Positions 14,480 to 55,548 of a stretch of 64,000 bases of DNA are shown here, piece after piece. The position numbers and the translations under genes were made by a program. The notes below the pieces were generated by a model, which was not told the DNA's origin, searched no databases, and saw nothing but the letters and a program-made list of their open reading frames with translations. The DNA is from a bacterium. GTDB lineage: Bacteria > Acidobacteriota > HRBIN11 > JAKEFK01. The stretch covers positions 572-64,571 of the forward strand of contig JAKEFK010000024.1 in assembly GCA_022616075.1 (NCBI GenBank), in the 5' to 3' direction. Numbering within the stretch: the stretch's first letter is position 1; each line of letters begins with the position of its first letter.

Positions 14480-16726
14480 ATGAAGGTCCTGTTTTTTATC
14501 TTGCTTGCTCAGACAGCATTTGCGTTTACCAGGCCGGTCGTGGAGATTTCCCGAATCCATCAAGCGCCTCAAATAGAAGATTTTCTGGACATGGATTCCG
14601 ACAGCGAGAGAGACCTTCTGAAAATAGAAGGATTCCGGCAGCGGGAGCGGAATGACAATAAGCCCTCCACGCGTCTTACCAGGGTTTTTCTGGGTTATGA
14701 TGACCGCAATTTCTATGCAGTTTTTCAATGTTTCGAGAAGGATCGCGACAAAATTCGCGCGCGGATGATGAATCGCGGCAGTAACGCGATCTACAATGAC
14801 GACATCGTTACAGTTCAGCTGGACACGTTCAATGACCAGCGCCGCGCGTATCAGTTCGTGTCCAACCCATTCGGCGTCCAGCAGGATGCCGTTTGGTTTG
14901 AGGATTCCGCAACCTTTGATTACTCCTTCGATACTGTTTTCAAAACGAAAGCAAGGATCACTCAAGACGGATATGTTGTCTTGTTTGCGATTCCATTTCG
15001 CAGTTTACGGTTTTCGTCCGATGAGCGTCAAAACTGGGGAATTCTTTTAACTCGTTATATTCCCGGGATCGATGAGCAAACTTACTGGCCTCAGTATTCG
15101 AACAAAATCTCCGGACGACTGAACCAGACGGCGGTTCTGAATGGTCTGAGGAATATTTCACCCGGGCGTAATATTCAGCTTCTGCCGTACACTGCGTTTC
15201 GGTCTTTTCAGGCGCTTGATCTTCGGAACCTGTCCACTCCGCGGATTGTGGAGGACCCGGCGGAGAATGAGGTGGGAATAGATGGCAAATTCATCGCGAG
15301 GGACAGTCTTGTTGTCGATGTGACGGCGAATCCTGATTTCAGCCATGTAGAATCGGATGAACCGCAGGTCACGGTGAATCAAAGATTTGAGGTGCTCTTC
15401 CCTGAAAAACGTCCGTTCTTTCTGGAGAATCAAAGCTTTTTTGAAACTCCGATTAATTTACTGTTTACGCGGAGAATTGCTGATCCGCAATGGGGGACGC
15501 GCCTGACCGGAAAGATTGGGAATTACAGTCTGGGCGCTTTGCTTAGCGATGATGAATCGGAAGGAAAGAGTCTGCCTGAAGATCATCCGTTGTCGGGGGA
15601 ACGCGCATATTATGGCACCATCCGGGTAAGTCGCGATCTCGGACACCAATCTTCAATTGGGTTGATTTACGCCGACAGCCGATTTGCCAGCAGCTTCAAC
15701 CGCGCAGGCGGTGTTGATGCTCATATCAAATTCAGCGATCAGTGGGTTTCTACTTTTCAAGCTGTTACAACGTCCACCAGGAATCAAGATGGAACCAGAA
15801 GTGCCGGGCCCGGATACAGAGTGAACTTGCGGCGGAATGGGCGCCATTTTGTTTACAATTTCGACTACCATGATTTCAGTCCCGGATTTGTCTCGCGTAC
15901 TGGATTTGTGAATCGCACCGATATTCGACGATTCGATCAACAGGCAGGCTACAGTTTCCGCCCGGAAAGCAACTTTCTGTTCGCGTGGACGCCGCATTAC
16001 GATATTTCCTATGTCTATGATCACAGCGGAACACTGATAGATTGGTTTCACAATCCATGGGTATCGCTTGATATGGCTGGACAAACGTTCCTGGGGTTTG
16101 GTTATACCTTTTTGGCTACCAGGGTAAAACCGGACGACTTCCCGGTCCTCACTGAGAATCTCAGGATATCCCGTCACGAGTGGGGTGTGACCTTCAACAC
16201 GGAAGCATTGAGACGGCTCAGTGTCGCATCGTCACTATTTGTTGGCAGATCTGTAAATTTTGTGCCCCGCGAAGATAAGCCTCCCGCCGGTGCCGATTTT
16301 CTGAACGCAGCCTTAACCCTTTCCTTCCGCCCGACGAATTCCTTCACCATTGATACTGCGTACATCCTGAACAGGCTTACAGATCCTCAGACATCTTTCG
16401 ATATCTTCAACAATCACATTATCCGGACAAAATGGAATTATCAAATCAATCGCGAACTTTCGATTCGTGTCATTGTGCAGTATGACACTCTGCTGGCCAA
16501 TACGAATTTTACTAGGTTGCAAACAGTGAAAAACCTGAATGCGGATTTATTGGTCACCTACATGGTTCATCCAGGCACCGCGCTTTTTGTCGGATTCAAT
16601 AGCAATCTTCAAAATTTGGATCCGAGTCTTGCCATGACTGGCTCCGGCTTGCTGCGTACTCGCAACGATTTCCTGAACGATGGCAAACAGTTCTTCGTAA
16701 AATACTCACATTTGTTCCGATTCTGA
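14480..16726 (+). CDS. DUF5916-type protein: N-terminal CBM9-like domain plus putative outer-membrane beta-barrel; paralog 1
   Basis: 748 aa with a signal peptide and a C-terminus ending ...FFVKYSHLFRF. Paralogous to 31618..33903. Confidence 0.5.
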   Translation: MKVLFFILLAQTAFAFTRPVVEISRIHQAPQIEDFLDMDSDSERDLLKIEGFRQRERNDNKPSTRLTRVFLGYDDRNFYAVFQCFEKDRDKIRARMMNRGSNAIYNDDIVTVQLDTFNDQRRAYQFVSNPFGVQQDAVWFEDSATFDYSFDTVFKTKARITQDGYVVLFAIPFRSLRFSSDERQNWGILLTRYIPGIDEQTYWPQYSNKISGRLNQTAVLNGLRNISPGRNIQLLPYTAFRSFQALDLRNLSTPRIVEDPAENEVGIDGKFIARDSLVVDVTANPDFSHVESDEPQVTVNQRFEVLFPEKRPFFLENQSFFETPINLLFTRRIADPQWGTRLTGKIGNYSLGALLSDDESEGKSLPEDHPLSGERAYYGTIRVSRDLGHQSSIGLIYADSRFASSFNRAGGVDAHIKFSDQWVSTFQAVTTSTRNQDGTRSAGPGYRVNLRRNGRHFVYNFDYHDFSPGFVSRTGFVNRTDIRRFDQQAGYSFRPESNFLFAWTPHYDISYVYDHSGTLIDWFHNPWVSLDMAGQTFLGFGYTFLATRVKPDDFPVLTENLRISRHEWGVTFNTEALRRLSVASSLFVGRSVNFVPREDKPPAGADFLNAALTLSFRPTNSFTIDTAYILNRLTDPQTSFDIFNNHIIRTKWNYQINRELSIRVIVQYDTLLANTNFTRLQTVKNLNADLLVTYMVHPGTALFVGFNSNLQNLDPSLAMTGSGLLRTRNDFLNDGKQFFVKYSHLFRF

Positions 16727-22415: not shown

Positions 22416-23144
22416 ATTCCTGAATAGTTTGAATGGAGGGCAGGTTCTCTGTCTGAGTCTACAAGGATGCAGATTTTCCCAAAATGAGTTGCTCCTGCCA
22501 GATGCTGAAATGCCTGAGCCGCTTCATGGCAAATAAAGACACCCCTCCGGTTCCCAACACCACGACTGTGTCTTCCGGCCTGAGACGCCCTGCGCAAACC
22601 ACGGCATTCCATGCCGTAACTCCCGCGCACGGAAGCGTTGCAGCTTCTTCATCGGACAGATGCGGCGGGACCGGTACGACACTATCTTCGTCTACTGCGA
22701 TGTATTGTGCGAGAACCCATCGGCTACTGCGCCTCCGAGCGGAGAGACAAGTTTTTCCGGAGAGACTTCGCCCTCCAGCCACCTGGGATAAAAGATGGGC
22801 GCAACGCGATCTCCCTTCTTGACTCTGGTTACTCCGGTACCTGTCGTTTCGACAACGCCGGCTGCATCGGAGACAGGAACGCGGCCGGAAGGAGGTCTCC
22901 AACGGTTAACACCGTTTACTACGAGTAAGTCTCGATAATTGAGTGAAACCGCCCGGACGTTCAAGACAATCTGGCCGGGTTCGGCCACAGGCTCCGGACG
23001 TTCGACAACCTTTAAAGAATCAATACCAAATTTTTCACCAACTTTAATGACGCGCATGTTCCTGTCCTTTCCTTTATCACTCGTATCTAATTGCCACGGT
23101 TGGATCAACTCGCGATGCACGGCGAGCCGGAACAAAACATGCAA
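22397..23144 (-). pseudogene. Second MDR quinone-oxidoreductase paralog, frameshifted and C-terminally truncated
   Basis: N-terminal domain intact (SLNYRDLLVVNG; EEAATLPCAGVTAWNAV; VVVLGTGGVSLFAM), then frame breaks. About 80 aa of the C-terminus are missing where the ChrA gene ends. Confidence 0.6.
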
Positions 23145-25518
23145 ACAGAGCTACAAAAACCAGCAGCAATACGATCACAATGAATGTCTGCGGGTCGGTT
23201 ACACTGACACCGAAGAGCAGGTTCTTGATTAGCCGCGTCACCGCAAGCGACGCCACGAAACCAAGCGGTACGCCAATGAATGTTAGCTTCATACCTTGAC
23301 CGATCACGAGTTTCAATACGTCACTCCGCCTTGCTCCGAGCGCCATCCGAATGCCGATTTCATGAGTGCGTTGTGCTACTCCGTACGAGATCGCACCGTA
23401 GAGTCCTGTGGCCGCAAGCACCAATGCCGCGACTGCAAAAATGGTTAGCAGCCACGCATTGAAGCATCGCGGAGCGATTGAAGCGGACATGTACTGCTGC
23501 ATGGTCCGCATGTTCGAACTGGGCACATCGCGATCGACCGCCTGTATTTCGCGGCGCACCGCAGATGACAACGTCATAGGCTCAACTGCCGTGCGAATCA
23601 GCCAGTATTGATTTCTCGTCATCCACACCACGTCATCTTCGTGAAACTGATGGATCGGAAGGTAAATGTGAAGCGATGGGTCGCTGTCCAGGCTCGCATG
23701 TTTCACGTCTCCCATCACGCCTACTATTTCAACAGGACGGGGACCTGTGTCATTGTCATCGATGAGAAGATACGCCCCGATTGGGCTACTGTTTGGCCAG
23801 TACCGCCTGGCAAAATTCTGACTGATGAGAGCTACCGGTTTGGTCTGCGCCGTATCGTGCTCTTTGAATTCACGGCCAGTGATCAACGGAATCCTCATCG
23901 CCTCGAAGTAACCTGCGCTGGCAATACGAAAGTCTGCCATCATCGCTTCATCAGGAGGGGTTGCGCGCCCCTCTATGGTAACTGGTACGCGGGCCAAAAC
24001 GCCGCTCAGCGGAAGCGTGGAGACGAGGCCAACACTTTCGACTCCTGGCAAACTTTCAAGGCGTGGCCGGAGCTTTTCATAAAATCCGGTGACTGCAGCG
24101 CGGTTGGAGTAAGTTGTTTTTGGTAATGAAAGCCTTAGCGCCAGAACGTTATCTGCATCGAATCCGGGACTGACTTCTTGCAGCCGCAGAAAACTTTTAA
24201 CAAGCAAACCGGCGCCGGCCAGCAGAACAAGTGAGAGGGCGATTTGAAAGATGACCAGGAAGCCTCGCGCACGACTTTGTCGCGGTCCGCTGACAGATCC
24301 ACGAACCCTCTCTTTGAGTTCGTCATTCAGACTTACGCGTGTCGTTTGCCATGCTGGGGCCACACCGAAGATCATCGCAGTCAACAGCGAAAGCGCGAGC
24401 GTGAACAGAATCACGCGAAAGTCCACAGAGACTTCCGCAATGCGCGGCAGGTTTTCCGGGCTGAGCACAAGCAACAATGGACTGCCATAGTATGCAAGCA
24501 GCAATCCACCTACGGCGCCTAGCAGAGCAATCAACAAGCTCTCTGTTGCAAGTTGCTGAATTAAACGCCAGCGATTGGCGCCGAGGCCCATCCGAATGGC
24601 CATCTCGCGGCGCCGCGTTGATGCCCGCACCAGCGCCAGATTCGCCAGATTCACACAAGTGATCAGAAGCACCACACCGATTGCTCCAAACAAGACCCAC
24701 AACGCGACGCGGAAGTTTCCCACGACTTCTTCATGCAACGGAGTAAGCGTGACGCCAAGCTTTTGTCGATTGGCGACCGAGTATTGCTGCCGAACCCGCT
24801 CGGCTATGGAAGTTAAATCCGCTTCAGCTTGTTGGAGTGTGATGCCCTGCTTCCTCCGCGCAACGGCGAGCAAGAAATTTGTCGATGTGCGTATGTTGCG
24901 CGATGGATCGGCATCAGGAGCCAGCGGAACCGCGAGTTCCGCTTCTCTGATCGGAAAGAAAAACTGTGGCGGCAGGACGCCCACCACCGTGTAGCTCGCG
25001 CCATTCAGTGTGAGCGTTTGTCCATCGAGCAGCGGATCAGCGCCAAATCGCCGCTGCCACAAACCGTGACCTACGACTACTACATTTTCCTGACCGGGTG
25101 TGTCCTCTGCAGCCAGCAAAGTACGCCCGATCAACGCTTCCACGCCAAGTAACTGAAAGGCGTTTGCTGAAATTCGGAGGCCTTGCAATCGCTCAGGGTC
25201 ACCGCGGCCGGTTAGATTCGCACTCCAATTCGCAAACGCTCCGATGTCGTCCAGGCTTCGATTCTGGTCTCGAAAGTCGATGAAATCAGGAAGATTAAAC
25301 GGGCGCTTGCCCGGGTCCACGCGGCGCGAAGTCATCCACACCAATTGTTCCGGCTGCTTGAAGGGAAGTTGGCGCAACAGGATGCCATTGACTAGACTGA
25401 AGATCGCTGTATTACCACCGATGCCGAGTGTAAGTGCAAGCACTGCCTCCAGTGAAAAGCCCGGTTGCTTGAGCATTGTTCGAATTGCGTACCGTAAGTC
25501 TTGCCAGAGATCTTCCAC
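23077..25518 (-). CDS. ADOP-family (Acidobacterial duplicated orphan permease) FtsX/MacB-like ABC permease
   Basis: 813 aa with a duplicated FtsX architecture and the MEDLWQDLRYAIRTMLKQPGFSLEAVLALTLGIGGNTAIFS N-terminus characteristic of ADOP proteins. Confidence 0.85.
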   Translation of the reverse strand: MEDLWQDLRYAIRTMLKQPGFSLEAVLALTLGIGGNTAIFSLVNGILLRQLPFKQPEQLVWMTSRRVDPGKRPFNLPDFIDFRDQNRSLDDIGAFANWSANLTGRGDPERLQGLRISANAFQLLGVEALIGRTLLAAEDTPGQENVVVVGHGLWQRRFGADPLLDGQTLTLNGASYTVVGVLPPQFFFPIREAELAVPLAPDADPSRNIRTSTNFLLAVARRKQGITLQQAEADLTSIAERVRQQYSVANRQKLGVTLTPLHEEVVGNFRVALWVLFGAIGVVLLITCVNLANLALVRASTRRREMAIRMGLGANRWRLIQQLATESLLIALLGAVGGLLLAYYGSPLLLVLSPENLPRIAEVSVDFRVILFTLALSLLTAMIFGVAPAWQTTRVSLNDELKERVRGSVSGPRQSRARGFLVIFQIALSLVLLAGAGLLVKSFLRLQEVSPGFDADNVLALRLSLPKTTYSNRAAVTGFYEKLRPRLESLPGVESVGLVSTLPLSGVLARVPVTIEGRATPPDEAMMADFRIASAGYFEAMRIPLITGREFKEHDTAQTKPVALISQNFARRYWPNSSPIGAYLLIDDNDTGPRPVEIVGVMGDVKHASLDSDPSLHIYLPIHQFHEDDVVWMTRNQYWLIRTAVEPMTLSSAVRREIQAVDRDVPSSNMRTMQQYMSASIAPRCFNAWLLTIFAVAALVLAATGLYGAISYGVAQRTHEIGIRMALGARRSDVLKLVIGQGMKLTFIGVPLGFVASLAVTRLIKNLLFGVSVTDPQTFIVIVLLLVFVALFACFVPARRASRVDPTVAIRYE

Positions 25519-31617: not shown

Positions 31618-33903
31618 ATGATCTCAATCATCAGTCGTGTGCTGCTTGCATTGTTGATATTTCACGCAATCGAATCGGAAGCACAAATCCATTCGAATCT
31701 GACGCCTAAGATATTGCAGATCCGGCGTATAGACGACGCGCCAGTTTTGGAAGATTTTCTGGACATGGAACCTGACTCACAGATTGAAAAGTCTCTCACG
31801 AAAGTAGAAGGTTTCATTCAGCGGGTTCCGTCTGATGGATCTCCATCGAGCCGCCGGACTGTCGTTTATCTCGGCTATGATTCATCGCATTTTTACGCAG
31901 TCTTTCTATGTTTTGATCCGGAGCCGGAAAAGATTCGGGCAAGAATGTTCAACCGCGGCAGTGAAATCATACTCTCCGACGATGTAGTGACGCTTCAACT
32001 GGACACGTTTCACGACAAGCGGCAGGCTTATGTTTTCGGATCGAATCCTCTTGGAGTGCAATCCGATTGGGTCTGGGTGGAGGGACGGGGCTTCGATCAA
32101 TCTTACGATGCCGTATTCCAAACTAAGGGCCAATTGACGGACCGGGGCTACGTAGTGTGGATGGCGATTCCATTTACAACTTTGCGTTTTCCATCAAAAC
32201 CGAACCAGGAATGGGGAGTTCTTCTCACTCGCGACATCCCTCGATTGAATGAAGAAACATTCTGGCCTCACTACTGCAGCCATATTGAAGGTCGCTTGAA
32301 TCAAATTGCAGACCTTACAGGTCTGGAGCAAATTACTTCCGGGAAAAATACTCAGTTGATCCCATATGCCTCCGCACGATCTTTTCGAGCACTGGATCAG
32401 AGACCAGATGTGACGCCTCATTTCATTGACAGCCGCTTGGATCCGGAGCTGGGCTTAGATACGAAACTGATTATTAATGACAGCCTGGTTCTCGATCTAA
32501 CCTTGAACCCCGATTTCAGCCAGGTTGAATCGGACGAACCTCAGGTTACAGTGAACGAACGTTTTGAAGTCTTCTTCCCGGAAAAGCGGCAGTTCTTTTT
32601 GGAGAACGCCAGCTCGTTTCAGACTCCGATGAACCTCTTGTTTACGCGAAGAATCGCAGATCCACAGATCGGAGCTCGACTGACGGGCAAGATCGGAAAA
32701 TATGCCATAGGCGCTCTCTCAGTCAACGACGAGTCGCCCGGTAAGAATGTCGCCGAACACCATCCAATATCGGGAGATAAAGCTATATTTTCGGTATTCC
32801 GGATTAGCCGGGACATTCTGGAAGGGTCCAACCTGGGTATCCTGTTTACGGACCGCGAATTCGAAAGCTCATTTAATCGTGTAGCGGGGATTGATGGACG
32901 TTTGAAGCTAAATTCGAATTGGGCGGGATCTTTTCAAGCCGTCACCAGCGTTACGCAGTTATTGGACGGGAGACATCTATCAGGACCTGCTTACCAATTG
33001 GATTTATTGCGAAGCGGGCGAAAGTTGTCCTACGAATTCATTTACGCCGGCATAAGCCCAGACTTTCGAACTCAGTCAGGATTTGTTGAACGAACGGACA
33101 TCCATAGTTTTCATCAGTCCGCAACCTACAGCTTTCGTCCCGAAGGAAAGCATCTTATTAACTGGGGTCCTGCTCTATTCACAGATTACATACTGGACTA
33201 TTCGGGAAAGCGCCTGGACTGGGTATTCAATCCCCATTTCTTAATGGAATTCACAGGGCAAACCTTGATCTCGTTGCGATACGCAGCATTCAGGGAGAAA
33301 TTACGTGCCGTTGATTTTCCTGTTCTTGCCAAAGATCAAGACTTTTCACACCATCAATTCGCAGCCTCTTTTGCAACCCAATTGATTCCCCAGTTCAGTG
33401 TCAATGCTTTCGGGTTTCATGGAAGTAAAGTCAATTTCAATCCAGCCGAAGGAACGATCCCCTTCTTGGGTCAAACAACACACCTGGAATTGACGTTGAC
33501 TCTCAGACCAGGCAGATCTTTGACTGTCGATCACACTTATCTTCTTACTGACATGAATCAACGAAAGACGGGCGTTCCTATTTTCACAGACCACATTCTT
33601 CGTTCCCGTTGGAGCTATCAATTCAGCCGTGAACTCTCCATGCGGGTCATCCTACAGTACAATGCGTTGCTGACCAATCCTGAGCTTACCGATCTCCCTA
33701 CGATCAAATCCCTGAATGCCGACTTTCTGCTGACCTATCTAATTCATCCCGGAACAGCTCTGTACATTGGTTACAACAGCAATCTGGAGAACCTGCATCC
33801 TGATTTGATCCGGAGTTCCACAGGTCTGGTTCGAACCAGGAACAGCTTCATTAATAATGGAAGGCAATTCTTTGTAAAGTATTCCTATCTGCTTCGCTTG
33901 TGA
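31618..33903 (+). CDS. DUF5916-type CBM9-like/outer-membrane beta-barrel protein, paralog 2
   Basis: 761 aa, collinear with 14480..16726 (LEDFLDME..., VYLGYDSSHFYAVF, ...FFVKYSYLLRL). Confidence 0.5.
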   Translation: MISIISRVLLALLIFHAIESEAQIHSNLTPKILQIRRIDDAPVLEDFLDMEPDSQIEKSLTKVEGFIQRVPSDGSPSSRRTVVYLGYDSSHFYAVFLCFDPEPEKIRARMFNRGSEIILSDDVVTLQLDTFHDKRQAYVFGSNPLGVQSDWVWVEGRGFDQSYDAVFQTKGQLTDRGYVVWMAIPFTTLRFPSKPNQEWGVLLTRDIPRLNEETFWPHYCSHIEGRLNQIADLTGLEQITSGKNTQLIPYASARSFRALDQRPDVTPHFIDSRLDPELGLDTKLIINDSLVLDLTLNPDFSQVESDEPQVTVNERFEVFFPEKRQFFLENASSFQTPMNLLFTRRIADPQIGARLTGKIGKYAIGALSVNDESPGKNVAEHHPISGDKAIFSVFRISRDILEGSNLGILFTDREFESSFNRVAGIDGRLKLNSNWAGSFQAVTSVTQLLDGRHLSGPAYQLDLLRSGRKLSYEFIYAGISPDFRTQSGFVERTDIHSFHQSATYSFRPEGKHLINWGPALFTDYILDYSGKRLDWVFNPHFLMEFTGQTLISLRYAAFREKLRAVDFPVLAKDQDFSHHQFAASFATQLIPQFSVNAFGFHGSKVNFNPAEGTIPFLGQTTHLELTLTLRPGRSLTVDHTYLLTDMNQRKTGVPIFTDHILRSRWSYQFSRELSMRVILQYNALLTNPELTDLPTIKSLNADFLLTYLIHPGTALYIGYNSNLENLHPDLIRSSTGLVRTRNSFINNGRQFFVKYSYLLRL

Positions 33904-35035: not shown

Positions 35036-35128
35036 CTCATGATAGTCCTTCATCGAAATACTGAAAACAATTAATTTGACAAATGAATGATCCAGCCCGT
35101 ATTCTATTTGCTGAAACGGAGTGCATAT

Positions 35129-35722
35129 ATGCCGGGAATCCTGTGGTCTTCTAACGTTGATGACGCGCTCATGAAAGCCCAAAAAGAAAAAAAAGCGCTT
35201 TTTATCGATTTCTACGTTCCCGGTTGACTGGGTTGCGGGAAAATGGATGCCGTGACGTATCCGAACGAACCGGTGGCGCAACTGCTCAACAAAGAATTTG
35301 CCTGTGTCAAATGCAACGTGCAGGAGAAAGTGCCCGAGCTGCTATTGAATTTCGGAAAAATCCAATGGACTCCCACGTTTGTCATCGCGGATCACGCGAA
35401 AAATCAGATCCGAAGGATTATCGGGTATCGGCCGCCTGTCGAATTCCAGGCCGAACTTCACGTTTCGCTCGGCCTGATTGATTTGCTTCACAATCGTAAC
35501 AGGGAGGCTCTCCTGCAATTTGAGGGCATTGCGAATCGATTCCCGAAGTCATTGGTTGCGGCGGAATCTGTGTTCTGGAAGGGAATAGCTGCATATCGAA
35601 CTGCAGGCAGGAATCGAGAAGTTTTAAAAGAATACTGGAATCAGCTTTTAACCGACTATCCGGAAAGTACGTGGTGGGATCGAGCGGCTGTTTTTCCTGG
35701 CTGGGAACCAAACCGCCCATAA
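35129..35722 (+). CDS. Thioredoxin-fold (Thioredoxin_7/DsbD-gamma-like) protein with in-frame TGA in a UxxC redox motif; putative selenoprotein
   Basis: ATG 35129 ...ALFIDFYVPG-TGA(35225..35227)-LGCGKMDAVTYPNEPV... continues in frame to 35722. The TGA sits exactly where the first Cys of CxxC is expected. A hairpin GGATGC-CGUGAC-GUAUCC lies 20 nt downstream (SECIS candidate). Confidence 0.6.
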
Positions 35723-35785: not shown

Positions 35786-36640
35786 ATGGCGGCAAGATCC
35801 TCTAAAGTGACGATTCTTAATGTTCCTTACGATTCTGGTTACCGTGATACGCGGATGGGGCGTGGTCCCGAGCGCATCTTGAGTGTCGGATTGTTACAAA
35901 AGCTGGCAGATGCCGGAATCGAGGTCGAATCCGAAGTGATTGAAGCGCCCGTCAAATTTCACACTGAAGTGACCACAGCATTTCAGCTTAACAGGATACT
36001 GGCAAAGCGAGTTCACGAAGCGACTCAAAAAGGTCGCTTCCCAATTCTGCTTTCAGGCAATTGTGGTTGTTCGATCGGACTGATGTCAGGCCTGCCACAA
36101 GACTCCGGTGTTATCTGGTTTGATGCTCACGGCGACTTCAACACGCCGGAAACGACTTTAAGCGGCTTTCTGGATGGGATGGCGCTTGCGATTCTCACAG
36201 GAAAATGCTGGACTTCGCTGTCCTCCGCTATCGATGGATTCCGCGCGCTCCCTGAATCAAAGGCATTGCTGGTTGGGGCACGCGATGTGGATGAAGAGGA
36301 AGGGCGTTTGATTCAATCGTCCGGATTAGAATGGATTCGTCCGCAAGAAATGCAACAGCGGTTCATTCCAGCACTGGTATCGCTGAAATCCCGTACTCCC
36401 GCCGTGCATTTGCATTTTGATCTCGATGTTCTGGATCCGGCTTTAGCGCCAGCAAATCAGTATGTCGCGCCAAACGGACTTACGCCCAATCAACTGATCG
36501 ACGCGGCAAAACTGATCACCGATCGATTCGAAATTACTTCCATTTGCATTGCTGCCTACGACCCGGAATTCGATCCGGATGCAAAGGCCGCGCGCGTGGC
36601 ATGCGATTTGATTCTTGGTTTGTTGCTCCACCAACGCTGA
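35786..36640 (+). CDS. Arginase/agmatinase/formiminoglutamase-family ureohydrolase
   Basis: WFDAHGDFNTPE and DLDVLDP metal-binding motifs. Confidence 0.8.
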   Translation: MAARSSKVTILNVPYDSGYRDTRMGRGPERILSVGLLQKLADAGIEVESEVIEAPVKFHTEVTTAFQLNRILAKRVHEATQKGRFPILLSGNCGCSIGLMSGLPQDSGVIWFDAHGDFNTPETTLSGFLDGMALAILTGKCWTSLSSAIDGFRALPESKALLVGARDVDEEEGRLIQSSGLEWIRPQEMQQRFIPALVSLKSRTPAVHLHFDLDVLDPALAPANQYVAPNGLTPNQLIDAAKLITDRFEITSICIAAYDPEFDPDAKAARVACDLILGLLLHQR

Positions 36641-36798
36641 GACGCTTGCGCGGCTAAAGAAAGCTTTGCCGCTGTTCGGATGAACAGTACTCATTATTTT
36701 GATGAGAACAATCAATTTTACTTGAGCCATACTTGCTACTACACTTACCCCTCATGTCAAATAATCTCGAAAGAAACGGATAGTTCCATTCACTGTGC

Positions 36799-46268: not shown

Positions 46269-46724
46269 TTATAAACGCTGCCACCATTGTTTCACTATCT
46301 GCCAAAATCCGGTTTTTCCTTTGTCGGTTTCCGACATCACTCGGGTATCTTCTGCTGCACCCTCGATTGCCATCTCACCGATGTTGAAGTATCTCTCTTT
46401 CTCAGAGCGGTCGTATGCTCTTCCGGCCTCAATCTCGTTTCTAGACCATCGAGCAGCCCAATGAACATTGTTATTCGTTATCCAATAATGAGACTGGCAC
46501 TCGAAGCTCCAGTTCCCGATCGAAGGATGAAGCGAAATCGTCTTGCCATCAAAGATGAGCTTCCAATCCGTTGGTCCCAGCGGAGTAACGACTTCTTTTC
46601 CACAGCCACAGCAGCACTTGTGGACTACGGTTGCATACCTAATCGATATGTAAAGGGTCTCCTTCTCGATATGATCGGGAATAGATTCGACGAATTCATG
46701 TTTAAGAACTCTCTTCCTTCTCAT
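46269..46724 (-). CDS. Prokaryotic E2-like (UBC-fold) protein
   Basis: HPS-x7-C spacing (HPSIGNWSFEC) like the eukaryotic E2 HPN...C signature. Its stop/start overlaps the E1 gene. Confidence 0.5.
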   Translation of the reverse strand: MRRKRVLKHEFVESIPDHIEKETLYISIRYATVVHKCCCGCGKEVVTPLGPTDWKLIFDGKTISLHPSIGNWSFECQSHYWITNNNVHWAARWSRNEIEAGRAYDRSEKERYFNIGEMAIEGAAEDTRVMSETDKGKTGFWQIVKQWWQRL

Positions 46725-47911
46725 TAACGCATGTCTTCATTTGTGAGCAAGTCGCAATCGATCGTATACGTGCTGTGATGTTCACGCTTGAGGTCGCGAT
46801 AAAAGCCAAACAGTTTCTTCCATTTGATGACAGCTAAGGCGGCGTTGAGAGCGTTGAGATCAGCAATCTGGATATTCGTATCATATTGATTGTCTCTACC
46901 ACCATCCGAAAAAGAGATCCTGTTACGAACATGGTCACGCTGTTTCGGCGTGCTGGTCGTGATCCTTAGAATGCCGCCCAATGAATCATCAGTCACATTA
47001 ACACCCATACCGACGTCGATGAACGGAACGCCGCAGTATTCGAGCATTTCCACGATCATCTTTTTTGCCGAGCTGCGATCCAGGCAAAGAAAACCGAAGT
47101 CCATGTTTTGCAGTTCCCCGACATTCCCTGCATCTACATAAACCGCATGATCAATGACACCCCGGTGCATTTTCGAGTACAGACTCTTCAGGTAGACAAC
47201 CTTAGGTGGCTTCGTCATCAGGTCGTCAATCGAAGGAGCGCCCGGGGATCTGAAAGCGTTGTGCTGCAAAAAAGCATCTCCGTCAAAAAGGTGGATTTCC
47301 TTTACAGGGGTCTTAGCAACAAGATCCAGCACGTAACAGCCGGTTCCGCCCAACCCCACGATTGCAATCTTTAGTGGTTCTAGCTTTTTTGCGACGAAGT
47401 CAATTTCGGCCCTGCTTGAAGCGGTATCGATGTAATTGAATACAGTTTCCTCATTCTCTTTATCTGGTTCGATAACGGGAAACGTTTTTGACGTAATCAA
47501 TGGATCGATCAACTGAGCCGGGCCGGATATGATTGCGACATATGTGGTCACTTTAACGTAATAATCCTCATACAATCCGCTCGGCTTGGGCTTCGCTGAG
47601 AACCTGTGTTGGACCACGACGCCCTCAGCGAGGGTGCGGTTTTCACATGAATTTCTGATCTGCTCTATTTCCTTTCCATCCGCATTGCAGGGGTAATCGC
47701 CGACAAAATGAGCAACATGATCCTCAGGACGTGAGGTTATATCGCCCGCCAGGGTTAATGTTGAGACCAGAATTCCGAGCTTTATTTCTTTGCGGGAGTT
47801 TACATACGGAACATCCTTCACGAGTAAATAGCCGGAACGGATTTGGAGATCATAACCCTCGTCGCGCAGCTTTTTCAGGTCAGCGCTATGACTTATCAGT
47901 TTGCGTGACAT
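46724..47911 (-). CDS. ThiF/MoeB-family E1-like activating enzyme with a roughly 180-aa N-terminal extension
   Basis: Rossmann motif IAIVGLGGTGCYVLDLV...HLFDGDAF typical of E1/ThiF. The N-terminal domain is of unknown function. Confidence 0.7.
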   Translation of the reverse strand: MSRKLISHSADLKKLRDEGYDLQIRSGYLLVKDVPYVNSRKEIKLGILVSTLTLAGDITSRPEDHVAHFVGDYPCNADGKEIEQIRNSCENRTLAEGVVVQHRFSAKPKPSGLYEDYYVKVTTYVAIISGPAQLIDPLITSKTFPVIEPDKENEETVFNYIDTASSRAEIDFVAKKLEPLKIAIVGLGGTGCYVLDLVAKTPVKEIHLFDGDAFLQHNAFRSPGAPSIDDLMTKPPKVVYLKSLYSKMHRGVIDHAVYVDAGNVGELQNMDFGFLCLDRSSAKKMIVEMLEYCGVPFIDVGMGVNVTDDSLGGILRITTSTPKQRDHVRNRISFSDGGRDNQYDTNIQIADLNALNAALAVIKWKKLFGFYRDLKREHHSTYTIDCDLLTNEDMR

Positions 47912-48368
47912 TGAAGATCATTCCATCCTTGATCTTAACTTTTCCTCCAGGCATCAACGTACCTTCTAGGTTCGGATGAGGGCCGCCCTCATATGTGATT
48001 GTGAACAAGATGTTCTCTCCGGTCGGCACAGGGTCGAACGCAAGGGCGACGATTTCATTGAACGACAACTCCTTCTTCGTTACGACTTTCTTTCGGCCAT
48101 TTACGATGATCGTGAATTCCTTGCCCTTGGCGGAACCACTGTGGAAATGCTCGCCATCTTTCAGATGGATTATCTCTTGGTCGTTTGGAATAGGCTGATC
48201 TTCTCTATTGCCGGTAACCTCGCGATATAGCACGAGTCCTGGTTCTATATCGCCGAGCTTATATATGGCCTCGCCTATGGTGGGATTTGGCGATACGTGC
48301 AGCTTCTGATCAATATGAATCCTCACCTCATCGTGTTTCTGGTCCGCTTTCGTTTTTTGTTCAGACAT
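47886..48368 (-). CDS. Multiubiquitin-family (tandem beta-grasp) Ubl protein
   Basis: 160 aa with two beta-grasp-like halves. Operon context with E1 and E2. The C-terminus is ...TQTDKS with no GG. Confidence 0.5.
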   Translation of the reverse strand: MSEQKTKADQKHDEVRIHIDQKLHVSPNPTIGEAIYKLGDIEPGLVLYREVTGNREDQPIPNDQEIIHLKDGEHFHSGSAKGKEFTIIVNGRKKVVTKKELSFNEIVALAFDPVPTGENILFTITYEGGPHPNLEGTLMPGGKVKIKDGMIFNVTQTDKS

Positions 48369-48438
48369 TAAATCATCCTCCTTAAATGTGTTTGGTAACT
48401 CTTCCTTTGCGGCACTGCTTCGCTAATTTCGATTGGCA

Positions 48439-48894
48439 TCAGTTGTCCTGCTGGCATAACCGCGCCCGCAAGCGTGAAATGAGTGTTCTTGCGCGGCCCA
48501 CCTTTGTTTTGGTCAATTCGTGGTAGGAAAATCCGCGCGCAATAGAAACAAGAAGTCGCCATTCCGCCACGCTCATGTCGCCCCGGAGCTCTGCCAGACG
48601 AAGGCGAGCCAGCATCCGATGTTCTGCATGTGGTTCGAGCTGCTCTTGAAGATATTTACGCTTGAGCCGCGCATGGTTCCGTTCAACCCAGGAGCCGGTG
48701 GAAATGGCCGTGTTGAATTTGCGCTGAAATTCTTCTTGATCTGCGGGAACGCCGGTGGATTCAACGGTCGCCAGCAAGAAGGCGAGACCGTTTTCAATAC
48801 CCCAAGTTCGGTGAGTTACTTTGCCGCAACGCGCGGCCTGTGATTGGTGCTCCGCATAAACGCACCAAGGAAAAGGTAAGTCTTCCATGTTCAT
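48439..48894 (-). CDS. Hypothetical protein with C-terminal sigma70-region-4/LuxR-like HTH
   Basis: ...MSVAEWRLLVSIARGFSYHELTKTKVGRARTLISRLRARL. First gene of the Ubl/E1/E2 transcription unit. Confidence 0.4.
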   Translation of the reverse strand: MNMEDLPFPWCVYAEHQSQAARCGKVTHRTWGIENGLAFLLATVESTGVPADQEEFQRKFNTAISTGSWVERNHARLKRKYLQEQLEPHAEHRMLARLRLAELRGDMSVAEWRLLVSIARGFSYHELTKTKVGRARTLISRLRARLCQQDN

Positions 48895-49086
48895 CTCCTT
48901 TTGTGGGGATCGCTATTGTCCCCGCGATGACTGAGTGCAGATGAACCTTTTCATTGGCTTGCTGAACCGCGAACCGGAACGCTGTGCCCGATTCGAGGCC
49001 TATACCAGCCGCCTAGCAAGGCCGTTCTGCCCCACAATTATTGTAGTCCAAAATCGCTTAATGTTACAGATGGTTAGAAAAAAAGA

Positions 49087-50988
49087 TCAGAAAGTTGTCA
49101 ATTGCGTCGCATAAGTGTCTGACCACTCCTTTCGGAGAAGGTCGAACATCTGCTTCCGCTCAGGATCCTGCTGAGCCATCAAACTCTGCGCCCGAGCTAG
49201 CGACAGGAGCATCAACTGGAGTGCTACTAAAGTCTGCTGCGCACCATTGAATGTCTGCGGCTCGGAGGCATTATTTTCCGCACTTGTAGGAGCACCCTCG
49301 GCGACTCGCGCGTCCAGTGTCAGCGCAGCATTGCTCAACGGCTCGTAAAGCCGTCCGTAAAATGGATGTGCCGTGTTGATCGTCAGAATGATTTTGCCGA
49401 ATCGTTGATCTACATGATAAAACGGCCAGTACTCGTCATGCTTATAATGTATGATGTGCTTCGAGCTCTTAACGCGCTCAAAGGCTTCCTCATCAGTCTC
49501 CATTTCCCGCTTGAGCATCATCGCGAGAGTACGGAGGTTCTCATCGAGCTGCCGCTGTTCCTCCGGAGTGTTCGGCGTAGGCTCGATCAAGGCCTTTGCC
49601 TGGCGAAGCTCGGCCTCATCAGCCTTCATTTCACCGGCGCTTGGCTTGCTTCCATGGCGTATTACCGTCTGCTCGCTTTGATATTTCTTGATCTGCTCGC
49701 GAAGTGCAGTTATTTCTCCAGATAGCGCTTCAGAGATGTCCTGCAGCACATAATCCTTGGGACGAATGCCCTGCTTATTCGCGGCTACTCCGAATGCCTC
49801 GTCCAACTCGCCTGGGAAATCGATCTGGATGCGGAGCCAGTTCGCGTCACTGTGACGCTTCATGATCTCTGGAATCGTTCCGATGAAAACCTCGCGGTCG
49901 TTCCGCAAAACAGAGACCGTATTGTCGTCGTATAGGTGCAGGTCGTTTTTGCGAACCTTGAGAGGAAGCGCTCCCCAATCTGAGATCGGCAGGGCGTAGA
50001 GGCGAATAGTGACGGGTGCACGCTCGACGTTTTCCGATTCCTGACTGTGGTTTTCGCTCCGCTTCACTTGGATGACCTTAGAAAAAACTACCCGGCTTTC
50101 TTTCACTCTGATCTCAGGAATTCTGGTGTGCCGAGCAGAGACCATGGAGTATGTCGGATCGAAAGGCTCTACCAGCCGATTATTCACGTAGAGTTTTGTG
50201 CCTTTTGCAAGCGCGCGGCGATAGACACGGGACATCTCTTTGATCGCATGCTCACACAGCGTCCGAGCTTTCGCAAAAGTGAGCCGGTCGCACAACGGCA
50301 AATAAACGATCGTACCTGACTTCCCGAGCCTATCCTTGAGTTCGTCCACATCTTGCGCAAAAAGCGACTGCTCGTTTCGATCGGGAAAAGAGAGTGCTTT
50401 CGTCAAAATATCAGAGACCTCACTCGGCAGCAGGTCCATAAGAGTAGGGTCTGGCAGCTCGATGAGGTTTGATTTTTCCTTTCCGATGGCTTCGACATCG
50501 AGGGTCATATTGTAATAGGCTCCCGATTCCTGCCATGAATAAATGTCAAGAATCGGACTCATGCTGAGCGCCGCAGTTTTCATGCCCATGCCGAAGCGCC
50601 CGATGCCGGAACGGTTGTCAAAGACCATGGAACCGCCGAACGATGTTGCGAATTTTAGGACATTGGGTGCCATCCCGTTGCCGTTATCGAGTACCAAAAT
50701 ATTTGTCTGGTAAGCGCCTTTCTTACCAGTCTGGCTAAAATAGACGCGAACTTCGGTGGCGCCCCACTGGATAGCGTTGTCAATATGCTCGCACAACGCA
50801 GACGTTGTGCTGTTATAACCGACATCGCGCAAAGATCTGATGAGTGTTTGCCCGAAAAAGAGCGGTACGGTCGCCTTTTCCTTGATGATCCGATTCAGTA
50901 CAGTCTTCCCGCCGCGCGGGGCATTCTCGCCCCAAACTGGGGTTTGAGCATCAGCTTCCGACGAGGTGGGAGTATTTTGTTCTAGCAT
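49087..50988 (-). CDS. GHKL/MORC-like ATPase (HATPase_c_3 Bergerat fold) with long coiled-coil C-terminus
   Basis: EHIDNAIQWGATEVRVYF, VLDNGNGMA and GRFGMGMK motifs. The start at 50988 has an AGGAGA RBS. Confidence 0.7.
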   Translation of the reverse strand: MLEQNTPTSSEADAQTPVWGENAPRGGKTVLNRIIKEKATVPLFFGQTLIRSLRDVGYNSTTSALCEHIDNAIQWGATEVRVYFSQTGKKGAYQTNILVLDNGNGMAPNVLKFATSFGGSMVFDNRSGIGRFGMGMKTAALSMSPILDIYSWQESGAYYNMTLDVEAIGKEKSNLIELPDPTLMDLLPSEVSDILTKALSFPDRNEQSLFAQDVDELKDRLGKSGTIVYLPLCDRLTFAKARTLCEHAIKEMSRVYRRALAKGTKLYVNNRLVEPFDPTYSMVSARHTRIPEIRVKESRVVFSKVIQVKRSENHSQESENVERAPVTIRLYALPISDWGALPLKVRKNDLHLYDDNTVSVLRNDREVFIGTIPEIMKRHSDANWLRIQIDFPGELDEAFGVAANKQGIRPKDYVLQDISEALSGEITALREQIKKYQSEQTVIRHGSKPSAGEMKADEAELRQAKALIEPTPNTPEEQRQLDENLRTLAMMLKREMETDEEAFERVKSSKHIIHYKHDEYWPFYHVDQRFGKIILTINTAHPFYGRLYEPLSNAALTLDARVAEGAPTSAENNASEPQTFNGAQQTLVALQLMLLSLARAQSLMAQQDPERKQMFDLLRKEWSDTYATQLTTF

Positions 50989-51369
50989 TTCGATTCTCCT
51001 GTTTTGTGACCACCGGCTGTTCGGGGTCAGAGTCGAGAGCATAATGGCTCTCATTAAATAAGTAGTTGAAAACGCCCAAAAGTTACATTGTGGCCAGAAA
51101 TCGCGTGGAATTTTAGAAGTTTGATCGTTATTGTAAGAATGAGTGACAACGGTTTTCTGCGCGACTGATTCAATCTTTCGATAACGTCTCACGCATTTTG
51201 CTGCAGCCCGAGCGCATTTATGATTTCCGTTGCAATTCTTGTTTTCTCTTTGCTGTTGGAATCATATCCCAGACGAAAGTCTCGGAAATCATTATCTCCG
51301 GAATAAGGACCATAGACTCCACCGTTTGGGGAAGGTACTTCGTAACACAGCCCATTCTTCGAAGCTCCT

Positions 51370-52473
51370 TTACTTGTTTTGTCTAAACATCAATATGTTC
51401 GAATCTGCAGTGGCTTTCGATCTTGATTGTGATTTTTCTCTATAGCCCTCAATAATGGTTTTAAGCATGCCTTCGCCCAATTGCGAATGTGAAGACAGCT
51501 GGGCGAGATCAATAGGAACCCCGTATATAGCCTCGATCATCTGTCGAATTAGCCGTGGTTTTTCTGCCGGTATGTCTAGGCTTTCAGGTTCTTTCATTCT
51601 CCACCCATTAGCGGATAACTGCTCAAATAAGTAACGATATTGTCGCTCCGAAATAGCTCGCACATCAAAGGCTCGCCTGATTAAGGCTTGTATGGAAACG
51701 CCCCATTTTGGTTTTAGCTGTGCGATCCTAGAAAGAGTAAGTGGCGATACAAAATCTCGAACGATGCCTTTCTGAGGCATCAAGAACTCTGCTGCGAACT
51801 GGTTGGCACTCTTCTCCTGTTCAACGCCTAGTCTTTTCTTGTGCCCCAAAATAAGATGGCCTAATTCGTGAGCAATGGTTAGCCTCATCCTGTCAGCAGG
51901 TCTGTTCTTGGAAATCGCAATGAGAGGCACTTGGTCTCCAGGAGTATCATGAACGATTTTGCACGAAAATGCGTCACGTCTTGGAAGCTCGACTGGCAGA
52001 GCCAAAATCAAAACTCCAATTCGTTCTAAAGTATCTATCAAATTCACAATGGGACCATCTTCGGTGAGAATACAATGCATTCTAGTTTCAATGGCTGCTT
52101 GCTGAGGATCACTCGATGGGGATTTTGGGAGAGAGGGGGGGACTGGGCTAATCTTGGCGGCGAGCAGTGTGAAAAGCTCGTAGAGTACTTCTGCATACCG
52201 CTTAGCCTCTACCAATTCCCGTCTTGTCATCGTGGCGTGTGCCCTAAATACAACGGCGCTTGAGTCGAACTCAATCAAAGGATCGTTGGAAAAAAAGGAA
52301 AGAGGGAAGCGGGTGTATCTTGAAATATCAGATATCAAATCGGCGGAAGGCTCTTTGAATCCTCCTTCAATCTGAGCTATCGCGCTCTGAGAAACTTCAA
52401 TTTTGTCAGCCAATTGTTTTTGAGTCCACCCATGAAGTTCCCTTGCTTGTCGTATGCGTTTTCCGCTATACAT
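51370..52473 (-). CDS. Fused XRE-HTH plus ImmA/IrrE-family zinc metallopeptidase (CapH/CapP-like or DdrO/IrrE-like damage-responsive regulator)
   Basis: N-terminal HTH (IRQARELHGWTQKQLADKIEVSQSAIAQIEGG) and an HEXXH motif (HELGHLILGH). Confidence 0.8.
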   Translation of the reverse strand: MYSGKRIRQARELHGWTQKQLADKIEVSQSAIAQIEGGFKEPSADLISDISRYTRFPLSFFSNDPLIEFDSSAVVFRAHATMTRRELVEAKRYAEVLYELFTLLAAKISPVPPSLPKSPSSDPQQAAIETRMHCILTEDGPIVNLIDTLERIGVLILALPVELPRRDAFSCKIVHDTPGDQVPLIAISKNRPADRMRLTIAHELGHLILGHKKRLGVEQEKSANQFAAEFLMPQKGIVRDFVSPLTLSRIAQLKPKWGVSIQALIRRAFDVRAISERQYRYLFEQLSANGWRMKEPESLDIPAEKPRLIRQMIEAIYGVPIDLAQLSSHSQLGEGMLKTIIEGYREKSQSRSKATADSNILMFRQNK

Positions 52474-53499: not shown

Positions 53500-55548
53500 T
53501 TACGTCAAGCCAAGCGATTTAAGCGCTGCCGTCATTGGATCGCTGTAAAAGATCGGGTCGACGCGTTCCATGATGTCGGCCGGAACGGCAAGGAAATCGC
53601 GCTTGTTCTCTATCGGAACCATTGCACGGCGAGCACCATTTTCCTTTCCTAATTGAAGGGCTTGGTCTAAGGAGCGCAAAGCCTTAATGTTCCCCTGAAT
53701 GCTCAGATCTCCAAGCACCATTAGCGCTGGCAAAGTCGAAGATTTCTTCAATGCAGAATATATCGAGACAACAAGCGCAACGCCCGTCTCTCCGGTGACG
53801 TGATTGTGCAATAAATCGATGACCTCGACATGGAAGTCAGTCGTATCCACTTGCTGAGCAATTCCCATATCCACCTTATGACCCTGTATGTAGGAGAACG
53901 CGCGACGAAGCGACTCGCGCATCCCGGGATCGATTGCACCTGACAAACTCAGCTTTCCAGTTCCAGATGAGCAACCGACCTCCAGTCGAAACAAACCAAC
54001 TTTTCCTTGATCATCAACGGAGGCCGTGTAAAGCGACCCGGGTGCAAGCGGATCCGCAGAAATCAGATTCCGCCCGCCTTCCTCCGGAACACCGACGTAA
54101 CGCTCCTCACCTGTCTCCTTTTCTATATAGGAGAAAGATGTGTTGAAGAATTCAAATGAACCCATCTTCTTCAACTGCTCTTTGACCCTTCGCCTTCCTT
54201 CCAGTGCGAGCTCCAATATTTCTTGGAGTTCGTCTTTCGTCATCTCGCCATGGGGATAAATTAGTTTGGCCAGCCCTGCAACGGTTTTTCGTGATGCTTT
54301 AACATCACGAGATTTCAATTGCGATCCAAGAGAAAAATGCGTATCAATAATCTCGGTGAAATTGCGGCGGCGGAGCTCACGAAGCGCCTCAGCAAGATAG
54401 TCCACGACGAATCCATACCCTGAAGTGAACATGCTGGTCTGCATTTTCGGAATCTCCCACCCAGGAACATAAAAATGAATGCGGTCCAGAAAGGCGGTGT
54501 CTTCCCGGATCACATCCGGCAAAGGAGCAAATAAATGCGACGACCGGACCATCACATCAACCGCCTGGTGGATATTTCCAAAGAATGCAACCGAAGCAGT
54601 GCCGCTCAATTGCTCTTTTCCTCGCGCAAAACTTCCTGATTCGCAATAGGTCTTCAGCGTGGTAATCACTTCTCGCGGCATCTTCTGCAGGTCGGCCACT
54701 TCATCAAATGCGACCGCATCCCACAAGCCAACCAATCCAATCTTGTTCGTGCTCATGTTGTAGAAAAGATTGGCAACGGTTGTAGGACCAGTTAGAAGAA
54801 TTGCGTACGGAGAGAGTTGCTGGTACGCGAACGATTTTCCGGTTTCGCGGGGTCCCAATTCAATCAGGTTATAATTTTGCTCGCATAATGGCACGAGCCG
54901 CATCAGATAAAGGAGTTTCAACCGCCGGCTCATCCCGATGGGTTCTAGCCCGATTGTGCGAACTAATAAATCGACCCACTCTTCTGATGTGAAACCTTCT
55001 CGCCCGTTAAAATATTCCTGGATATCGAATGTAGCCACCTGAATCGGCTTCAGATCATCAATCCAAAACGGACTCCGGCGACCCTGAACCTGATCATCAT
55101 ATTCATGGCGTAATTCGACCTCGGACCAAACGCCATCCACGAGAAGACGATCGAAATTCCGCACGAACCGGTCCGGGACATGAATGAAGCGGTTCCCGAA
55201 GTTTACGATTTCCGCCCAGTACTTATCATCTTCAGCCAGATACCGAACTTTGACTTTATCAATGAGGATGTGTCGTCCTTTTTCTTTGACAACGGACTGT
55301 GCCTTATTCGCTTCATCGGGGCGCACGAAATTTTCCGCAAGAGTCGAGTTGACGATTTTTAATCCTGCTTCGACTGCGACAGGATCATCGGTTGCACAGT
55401 ACTTGCCTAACAAGTATTCCAGAACATAAACCGGCACTGTTGATCCGAACTTGAGCTTGCGCACCAATTCTTTTCGGACGACCTTACCGGCGAAAGTTTT
55501 GCTGACCTTGGCGTCCAGCGCGTCCGGAACCGACTGGTTAGAAAGCAA
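53500..55548 (-). CDS. brxL: BREX Lon-like protease BrxL
   Basis: 682 aa. The N-terminus (...KVVRKELVRKLKFGSTVPVYVLEYLLGKYC) and a C-terminal Lon protease-like domain are typical of BrxL. Confidence 0.8.
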   Translation of the reverse strand: MLSNQSVPDALDAKVSKTFAGKVVRKELVRKLKFGSTVPVYVLEYLLGKYCATDDPVAVEAGLKIVNSTLAENFVRPDEANKAQSVVKEKGRHILIDKVKVRYLAEDDKYWAEIVNFGNRFIHVPDRFVRNFDRLLVDGVWSEVELRHEYDDQVQGRRSPFWIDDLKPIQVATFDIQEYFNGREGFTSEEWVDLLVRTIGLEPIGMSRRLKLLYLMRLVPLCEQNYNLIELGPRETGKSFAYQQLSPYAILLTGPTTVANLFYNMSTNKIGLVGLWDAVAFDEVADLQKMPREVITTLKTYCESGSFARGKEQLSGTASVAFFGNIHQAVDVMVRSSHLFAPLPDVIREDTAFLDRIHFYVPGWEIPKMQTSMFTSGYGFVVDYLAEALRELRRRNFTEIIDTHFSLGSQLKSRDVKASRKTVAGLAKLIYPHGEMTKDELQEILELALEGRRRVKEQLKKMGSFEFFNTSFSYIEKETGEERYVGVPEEGGRNLISADPLAPGSLYTASVDDQGKVGLFRLEVGCSSGTGKLSLSGAIDPGMRESLRRAFSYIQGHKVDMGIAQQVDTTDFHVEVIDLLHNHVTGETGVALVVSIYSALKKSSTLPALMVLGDLSIQGNIKALRSLDQALQLGKENGARRAMVPIENKRDFLAVPADIMERVDPIFYSDPMTAALKSLGLT

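Follow-up and report, generated by a model that had tools for sequence, protein, structure and literature searches.

The window analysed here, a stretch of 64,000 nucleotides from contig JAKEFK010000024.1 (assembly GCA_022616075.1), contains on its forward strand a single reading frame, positions 35129–35722, that is broken only by an in-frame TGA at 35225–35227, and the question that this locus raises is whether the TGA is a stop codon between two small pieces or a selenocysteine (Sec) codon inside one gene. Our answer is that the TGA almost certainly does stand for selenocysteine, within a small redox protein of the thioredoxin fold. By direct reading and translation, the residues around the TGA are ...KALFIDFYVPG-*-LGCGKMDAVTYP..., which corresponds to the motif FYVPG-U-LGC. 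The mechanical list of open reading frames (ORFs) splits the gene at this point into a 46-aa piece (35087–35227, ending at the TGA) and a 159-aa piece that starts from the ATG at 35243. An in-frame TGA with an open frame on either side is common by chance, with 83 such sites in the 64-kb window, so that the argument has to be made from homology and conservation. This particular TGA is regarded as non-random because a Pfam match to the family Thioredoxin_7 spans it, because it is conserved in homologues and because a hairpin downstream of it is conserved as well. When the window was scanned for other selenoprotein genes, by looking for redox motifs with an in-frame TGA, no further convincing candidate emerged.

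The segment upstream of the TGA was found to be coding. Thioredoxin_7 (PF13899) matched residues 6–86 across the TGA, with the Sec residue entered as Cys in the query (5.5e-11; 42.9 bits against a cut-off of 27), and Thioredoxin_2 (PF13098; 3.2e-09, 37.5 bits against a cut-off of 27) and Thioredox_DsbH were also matched across it with the stop replaced by Cys. In addition, the 32 N-terminal codons are kept at the amino-acid level in homologues. A preliminary description of the locus, made from the letters alone, had proposed that an ATG at 35129 opens the same frame as the 159-aa ORF and that the segment before 35243 is translated; both proposals held, since the coordinates are correct, the frame runs to the TAA at 35720–35722, and the upstream codons are conserved and lie within the Thioredoxin_7 match. 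The ATG at 35129 is served by a Shine-Dalgarno sequence (Table 1), whereas the ATG at 35243 is preceded immediately only by GGGAAA. Further upstream there is a sigma-70-like consensus match; a relative with 92% identity (locus L001) has its TTGACA hexamer and the surrounding bases in the corresponding place and differs in the second hexamer.

A first word-indexed protein search with the window protein returned only two homologues, one of 159 aa with 92% identity and one of 150 aa with 28%. They share the Met at which they begin, and on each contig a TGA lies six codons upstream of it, after about 32 conserved codons. With two homologues only, an exhaustive HMMER search was needed, and the part of the protein after the TGA recovered 7038 relatives at an E-value of 1e-3 or better. 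Among the best 150 cluster representatives, 89 begin at most 6 residues from the Met after the UGA, 26 are full length (186–215 aa), and 26 are long tetratricopeptide repeat (TPR) proteins that match the C-terminal half only. It had been considered in advance that all homologues might start at the downstream Met; the full-length representatives show that they do not, and these carry CxxC, or more rarely SxxC, at the site, in agreement with the earlier placement of the TGA at the first position of a CxxC motif.

At the DNA level, a scan of GTDB species genomes with the peptide motif MDAVTYP gave 80 loci, mostly in Desulfobacterota (including the cultured Geomobilimonas luticola and Geobacter sp. 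AOG1), the others belonging to Nitrospirota, Planctomycetota, Bacillota, Chloroflexota, Armatimonadota and further phyla. When these were taken together with the loci found earlier, the homologous codon was TGA in 85 out of 86 and TGC in one. Since MDAVTYP overlaps the hairpin described below, metagenome contigs were scanned with a motif of the C-terminal domain instead, and the codon was TGA in 77 of the 80 loci chosen in this way and TGC or TGT in the remaining three. The loci with a Cys codon (TGC or TGT) at the site are L011, L091, L093 and L105. The window gene itself was not found in the GTDB representative genomes, where the best match is 40% identical, and, except for the one 92%-identical relative, the window protein is at most 46% identical to anything found. 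Two loci depart from the family upstream of the UGA: L060 (952–1023 and upstream) has extra stop codons within the N-terminal 30 codons, and in L098 (997–1044 and upstream) the region before the UGA is not homologous to the family; each is possibly a pseudogene or an assembly chimera.

The hairpin downstream of the UGA, which the preliminary description had put forward, with its GU-containing loop, as a possible selenocysteine insertion sequence (SECIS), turned out to be exactly the stem-loop that is conserved in the family. In the window it starts 18 nt after the UGA and consists of a GGAUGC/GUAUCC stem with a CGUGAC loop. Numbered from the U of the UGA, the family pattern is G21 G22 A23 U24 G25 C26 for the 5' arm, N27 G28 U29 N30 A31 C32 for the loop, and G33 U34 A35 U36 C37 C38 for the 3' arm. 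Synonymous sites in the stem are fixed in 76 unique sequences, namely Asp GAU (76/76), Tyr UAU (76/76) and Thr ACG (75/76, the sole exception being a Cys-form gene), and in the same sequences free variation is seen at the wobble sites of Ala, Val, Pro, Cys and Asn/Asp. Ascertainment through the MDAVTYP search peptide, which overlaps the hairpin, already determines two bases out of three in the stem; at the fixed synonymous sites, the search pattern permitted either pyrimidine or any base.

The stem was paired in 77 out of 77 unique Sec-form sequences, and positions N27 and N30, which flank the GU, were complementary in 76 of these, with five pair types represented (AU 27, GU 22, CG 19, GC 7, UA 1). 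None of 500 shuffles reached the observed complementarity and sliding the partner column destroyed the signal, and in a separate count (74 of 75 sequences, against a shuffle mean of 42.6) none of 100,000 shuffles reached 74, these being controls that ignore shared ancestry. In the closest relatives of the window gene within the metagenome set (L088–L090, 41–46% identity), Gly GGU stands for Asp GAU and Tyr UAC for UAU, a double change that is a compensatory replacement of A23-U36 by G23-C36; in L092 and L096, G25·U34 is replaced by A25-U34. The hairpin is lost in the Cys-form genes, as all 8 distinct ones examined have 1–4 stem pairs broken, even where the peptide remains MDAVT(Y/F).

Bacterial SECIS elements have been characterised as stem-loops that follow the UGA immediately and carry a G in a small apical loop (PMC1088965), and the hairpin at 35245–35262 has this form. 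We identify it, on comparative evidence, as the predicted SECIS of the window gene, to which SelB would bind. It shares with the proven SECIS of E. coli fdhF a position in the coding region just after the UGA and, at the apex, a GU between two complementary bases (G22-G23U24-C25 in fdhF, NC_000913.3; N27-G28U29-N30 in the window family). It differs from the fdhF element in that the GU is 5 nt further from the UGA, two bases 3' of the apex (A31 and C32) are unpaired, a bulged U is not evident and no extended lower stem is conserved across the family.

A second subfamily, dominated by soil sequences (LLDFSAAPM-U-GACARLDAEVYP; L098–L167, e.g. L099:2774–2821), has a different hairpin, which lies 5 nt closer to the UGA. 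This hairpin (CUCGGC, loop UGGAN, GCCGAG) is 99.4% paired in 57 unique sequences and shows compensatory changes from C-G to U-A and from G-C to A-U. It appears that the SECIS was replaced within one family and the UGA retained, with two partly overlapping hairpins 5 nt apart in the two subfamilies.

The family itself has been predicted before. A 2026 review of prokaryotic selenoproteomes (PMC13188914) includes a 'thiol:disulfide interchange protein' family (PF13098, UxxC motif, WP_011366075.1), which, as cited in that review, was predicted in 2004 by Kryukov and Gladyshev. The representative WP_011366075.1 reads ...LLDFFNPGUIGCKQMDAVAYP... (Table S1 of the deep-Sep paper), and a survey of 2006 recorded the family in Syntrophus aciditrophicus, Geobacter metallireducens and G. 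uraniumreducens (3 genes). The window protein aligned with this representative by BLASTP over 186 residues (1–186) with 30% identity (E 1e-31), Sec falling on Sec (residue 33 in both), and hhalign of our family profile against it gave a probability of 100% over 189 columns (E 4.5e-56). Since the homology is full length and Sec occupies the same column, the window gene is assigned by sequence as a new, divergent member of this published family of predicted selenoproteins. The two share the ...PG-U-xGC-xxMDAV.YP motif and the architecture of a thioredoxin domain with a TPR-like domain, and the occurrence of the family in Geobacter and Syntrophus seen here fits the published distribution. The window protein differs in forming a divergent branch, with LGC for IGC and the C-terminus ...YPESTWWDRAAVF, and in coming probably from Acidobacteriota rather than from a deltaproteobacterium. 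A full-text literature search with the peptide motif gave no match.

We then considered the fold of the protein. An AlphaFold2 model of the Cys homologue P0153 (38-sequence alignment, pLDDT 94.4) adopts the thioredoxin fold, in which helix 32–41 begins with the CxxC, the WTPT loop lies just before a beta-strand and four or five helices come after residue 97; the cis conformation of the WTPT loop is our assumption from general knowledge of the thioredoxin fold. In a Foldseek search against the PDB, the N-terminal part matched the DsbD gamma domain (E 5e-6 to 2e-5, 25–30% identity), the C-terminal part matched the TPR domain of YbgF (2xev), and both domains were matched only by E. coli YbbN (3qou) and its Salmonella homologue (3qdn). 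The Thioredoxin_7/DsbD-gamma-like fold that had been suggested from the letters is thus borne out by both Pfam and Foldseek. Structurally, the N-terminal domain is matched best by the DsbD gamma domain and the DsbH/Thioredoxin_7 proteins (target-normalised TM-score about 0.7), and DsbD and the C-terminus of TsoB are also the best local sequence matches. The window protein is distinguished from DsbD and DsbH by having neither a membrane domain nor a signal peptide, by Sec in place of the first Cys and by the added TPR-like domain. Membership in DsbD or TsoB (NF001419 and NF045694) was rejected, with 30 bits against 330 and 41 against 805, respectively, and only the C-terminal gamma-like domain matched; TsoB was the best of the NCBIfam models, none of which reached its cut-off for the window protein.

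The domain order, thioredoxin and then TPR, is also that of the 'chaperedoxin' YbbN/CnoX (3qou and 3qdn, E 6e-6 to 1e-5 over 196–200 columns), and some members of the window family have SxxC at the active site. E. coli YbbN also has SxxC. The two differ in sequence (14–16% identity), in size (about 285 residues for YbbN against about 190) and in structure, where the rmsd of 11–12 angstroms means that the domains sit differently; the YbbN-type TPR family of Pfam had no match in the window protein. The VPGUxxT thioredoxin-like selenoproteins (NF041382, NF041383) share the VPG-U tetrapeptide and a Thioredoxin_7-like N-terminus, with weak local matches (E 1e-4), but the motif of the window protein is VPGUxxC and its length 197 residues, against model lengths of 287–349. 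Membership in these families was rejected (20.4 and 21.8 bits against cut-offs of 350 and 275), and the score against the NCBIfam Trx7/PDZ selenoprotein model was far below its cut-off. Finally, no signal peptide is visible at the N-terminus of the 197-residue protein, and the protein is therefore probably located in the cytoplasm.

Three other explanations of the TGA were weighed against a selenocysteine codon. If the UGA acted as a stop, for example in a host that had lost its Sec machinery, the product would be the 159-aa protein from the ATG at 35243, perhaps with a 32-aa peptide in addition. This is exactly the product, of 150–159 aa, that gene callers and RefSeq annotate ('tetratricopeptide repeat protein', 'BamD'); UGA is moreover a normal stop in the window, and no sel genes lie within it. 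However, such a protein would begin partway through the thioredoxin fold and lack strand beta-1, helix alpha-1 and the active site, the 32 upstream codons are conserved as protein, a good Shine-Dalgarno sequence and a promoter-like site serve the ATG at 35129 and not the one at 35243, and the conserved hairpin would be left without explanation, so that we consider a true stop very unlikely. The TGA could instead be a Cys codon that was mutated or misread, in a gene that is dead or truly CxxC: TGC and TGT are each one base away from TGA, Cys forms of the family exist, and the two related loci L060 and L098 look damaged upstream. We discount a pseudogene or a sequencing error, as hardly credible, because the TGA is conserved across independent assemblies, in the two sets of loci counted above; it is also present in the 92%-identical relative, which differs at other positions, the frame is intact on both sides of it, and genes with the TGA, specifically, keep a hairpin at their synonymous sites. 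Insertion of Cys, Trp or Gly, all standard amino acids, at the UGA, through a changed code or near-cognate suppression, would suit a window in which the Sec machinery was not found and a selenium insertion that is a prediction. The 31 confident genes of the window end in TAA (14), TGA (13) and TAG (4), so that UGA is a normal stop there, the code is not reassigned (neither code 4 nor code 25) and only this site is recoded; furthermore, a conserved stem-loop with GU in a small apical loop right after the UGA is the signature of SelB-dependent recoding, and the family is present in Geobacter and Syntrophus, which are documented users of selenocysteine. We judge this explanation highly improbable.

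Beside the limits of ascertainment and ancestry given above, several results count against selenocysteine insertion at this site. Among 40 ORFs of at least 150 aa in the window there was no family match to SelA, SelB or SelD, which agrees with the absence of selA, selB and selD already recorded in the preliminary description, and no tRNA was found in the 64 kb, so that there is no tRNA-Sec there. Rfam, which has no model for the bacterial SECIS elements of this family, had no match in the window at either the gathering or a permissive threshold. The hairpin belongs to the minimum-energy fold of 35225–35290, but its folding energy is not better than that of shuffled sequence (z = -0.09 and -0.73), and in a 46-nt context the minimum-energy fold is an alternative pairing of GUUGCGG with CCGUGAC (window 35232–35256) that competes with the SECIS stem; by visual comparison with the L001 sequence and the family consensus, relatives do not conserve this pairing. 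The single-sequence folding energy being uninformative, the evidence for the hairpin is comparative. In the literature, the 2026 review places the family only among those 'predicted with high confidence', citing the 2004 survey. The structure model is that of the Cys homologue and not of the window protein, and no conserved gene partner was found among about 120 loci, the largest neighbour cluster (a heavy-metal P-type ATPase) comprising 7 loci.

Taking both sides together, we hold it very probable that positions 35129–35722 encode one cytoplasmic thioredoxin-fold protein of 197 residues, in which the UGA is recoded as selenocysteine by way of the hairpin at 35245–35262 and which serves in disulfide reduction or exchange. 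The active site would be Sec33-Leu-Gly-Cys36, in a DsbD-gamma/Thioredoxin_7-like domain that is followed by a short TPR-like helical domain. In the proposed mechanism, the hairpin would offer its GU dinucleotide, flanked by a complementary pair, as a bacterial SECIS, and SelB with Sec-tRNASec would bind it while the ribosome stands on the UGA at 35225. The protein, most likely a Sec-dependent thiol-disulfide oxidoreductase, would then alternate between a selenolate/thiol and a selenenylsulfide form, reducing or exchanging the disulfides of a partner that may be held by the TPR-like domain.

Table 1. Positions of the selenoprotein gene, its predicted elements and other annotated features in the window.
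Feature	Position	Strand	Remarks
Sigma-70-like promoter, TTGACA-18 nt spacer-TATTCT	35076–35105	+	Consensus scan, 10/12 positions; consensus match only, no evidence of function
Shine-Dalgarno GGAG	35118–35121	+	7 nt before ATG 35129; direct reading
Predicted selenoprotein CDS, full	35129–35722	+	Start ATG 35129–35131; 197 codons plus stop TAA 35720–35722; Sec = codon 33
UGA, predicted to be read as selenocysteine	35225–35227	+	First position of the U-L-G-C redox motif
TGC, resolving Cys of UxxC	35234–35236	+	Columns T, G, Y invariant across the family
Predicted SECIS stem-loop	35245–35262	+	Stem 35245–35250/35257–35262; loop 35251–35256; apex C35251:G35254 around G35252 U35253
W-T-P-T loop, presumed cis-proline loop facing the active site	35366–35377	+	Pro invariant, Trp nearly invariant in 60 family members
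C-terminal helical TPR-like domain, YbgF/CpoB type	35489–35674	+	NCBIfam tol_pal_ybgF, residues 121–182, E 3e-4; weak Pfam TPR_6 match
Arginase-family gene, possibly co-transcribed	35786–36640	+	Pfam Arginase 1.6e-34; below NCBIfam cut-offs for arginase, agmatinase and HutG
ADOP family duplicated permease	23077–25518	-	TIGR03434, 974 bits against cut-off 622
DUF6527	46269–46724	-	Defence-island-like cluster
E1-like DUF6791+ThiF protein	46724–47911	-	Defence-island-like cluster
Multiubiquitin-domain protein	47886–48368	-	Defence-island-like cluster
HATPase_c_3 protein	49087–51192	-	Defence-island-like cluster
HTH + Peptidase_M78 regulator	51370–52473	-	Defence-island-like cluster
BrxL	53500–55548	-	BREX type 1
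PglZ	55538–58099	-	BREX type 1
PglX methyltransferase	58102–61848	-	NF033452, 880 bits
ORF without assigned family	61845–62705	-	Within BREX cluster
BrxC-like ORF	62696–63943	-	Near window edge

Regarding the gene neighbourhood, no terminator-like site was found between 35722 and 35786, that is, before the arginase-family gene, and the first one lies after that gene, at 36671–36688. The arginase-family neighbour was present only in near-identical contigs, and it is lineage-specific, not a conserved partner of the family. In 4 of the roughly 120 loci (including L084:3803–4135), a downstream gene on the same strand resembles, by eye, the catalytic subunit of ferredoxin:thioredoxin reductase, with CPC...CxC, and it could be the electron donor; in four loci a neighbour was likewise labelled by eye as resembling an ArsR-type regulator. 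Upstream, the window has two large DUF5916 paralogues (748 and 761 aa) on the forward strand, at 14480–16726 and 31618–33903, about 15 kb apart. About 1.2 kb separate the second of them from the selenoprotein gene downstream, an opposite-strand ADH gene standing in between, and this arrangement is syntenic in L001, the 92%-identical relative.

Elsewhere in the window, whose GC content is 48.9%, the reverse strand carries a BREX type 1 anti-phage system (53500–63943) and, beside it, a defence-island-like cluster (46269–52473). The permease listed in Table 1 belongs to the ADOP family, which is typical of Acidobacteriota, and so hints at the source phylum; Acidobacteria have been reported to include selenoprotein users (2006 survey). 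Finally, at 5022–5965 on the reverse strand, a 160-aa ORF that matches only the C-terminal part of a beta-lactamase family profile overlaps a 163-aa ORF without a match, and the pair may be a frameshifted or split gene.

The most direct consequence of these results is a corrected gene model, of 197 instead of 159 residues, in which the active site is restored. The same correction applies well beyond the window, as RefSeq and the annotation of metagenome-assembled genomes (MAGs) still systematically shorten the members of a selenoprotein family that was published in 2004. In particular, the Sec-form genes of Geobacter sp. AOG1 (L041:2884–3450) and Geomobilimonas luticola (L032) are given in RefSeq as truncated 150-aa 'tetratricopeptide repeat protein' entries (WP_223905972.1 and WP_214174094.1), and copies in MAGs are named 'outer membrane protein assembly factor BamD' or hypothetical. 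Bacterial selenoproteins are known in general to suffer from misannotation. For this family, the signature UGA-N17-GGAUGC-N-GU-N'-AC-GUAUCC, or its soil variant, could be used to re-annotate the genes.

For the biology of the family, Sec-form relatives ran into the hundreds in the genomes and the soil and sediment metagenomes examined here, mostly under annotation as truncated 'TPR' or 'BamD' proteins, against the 3 genes of the 2006 survey; most of the family genes found here are Sec forms, and they are abundant in sediment and soil bacteria. In a small sample of the literature we did not find this preponderance of Sec forms, the covarying N-GU-N' apex or the presence of two hairpins in one family described. 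A wider proposal, which we regard as speculative and rather unlikely, is that the family represents a selenium-dependent, CnoX-like 'mini-chaperedoxin' that would capture its clients through a selenenylsulfide, that would be far commoner than the literature suggests, and whose SECIS would have been replaced at least once. The family also forms a clean natural data set on what the apex of a bacterial SECIS requires, and for the organism of the window the gene implies that it decodes selenocysteine.

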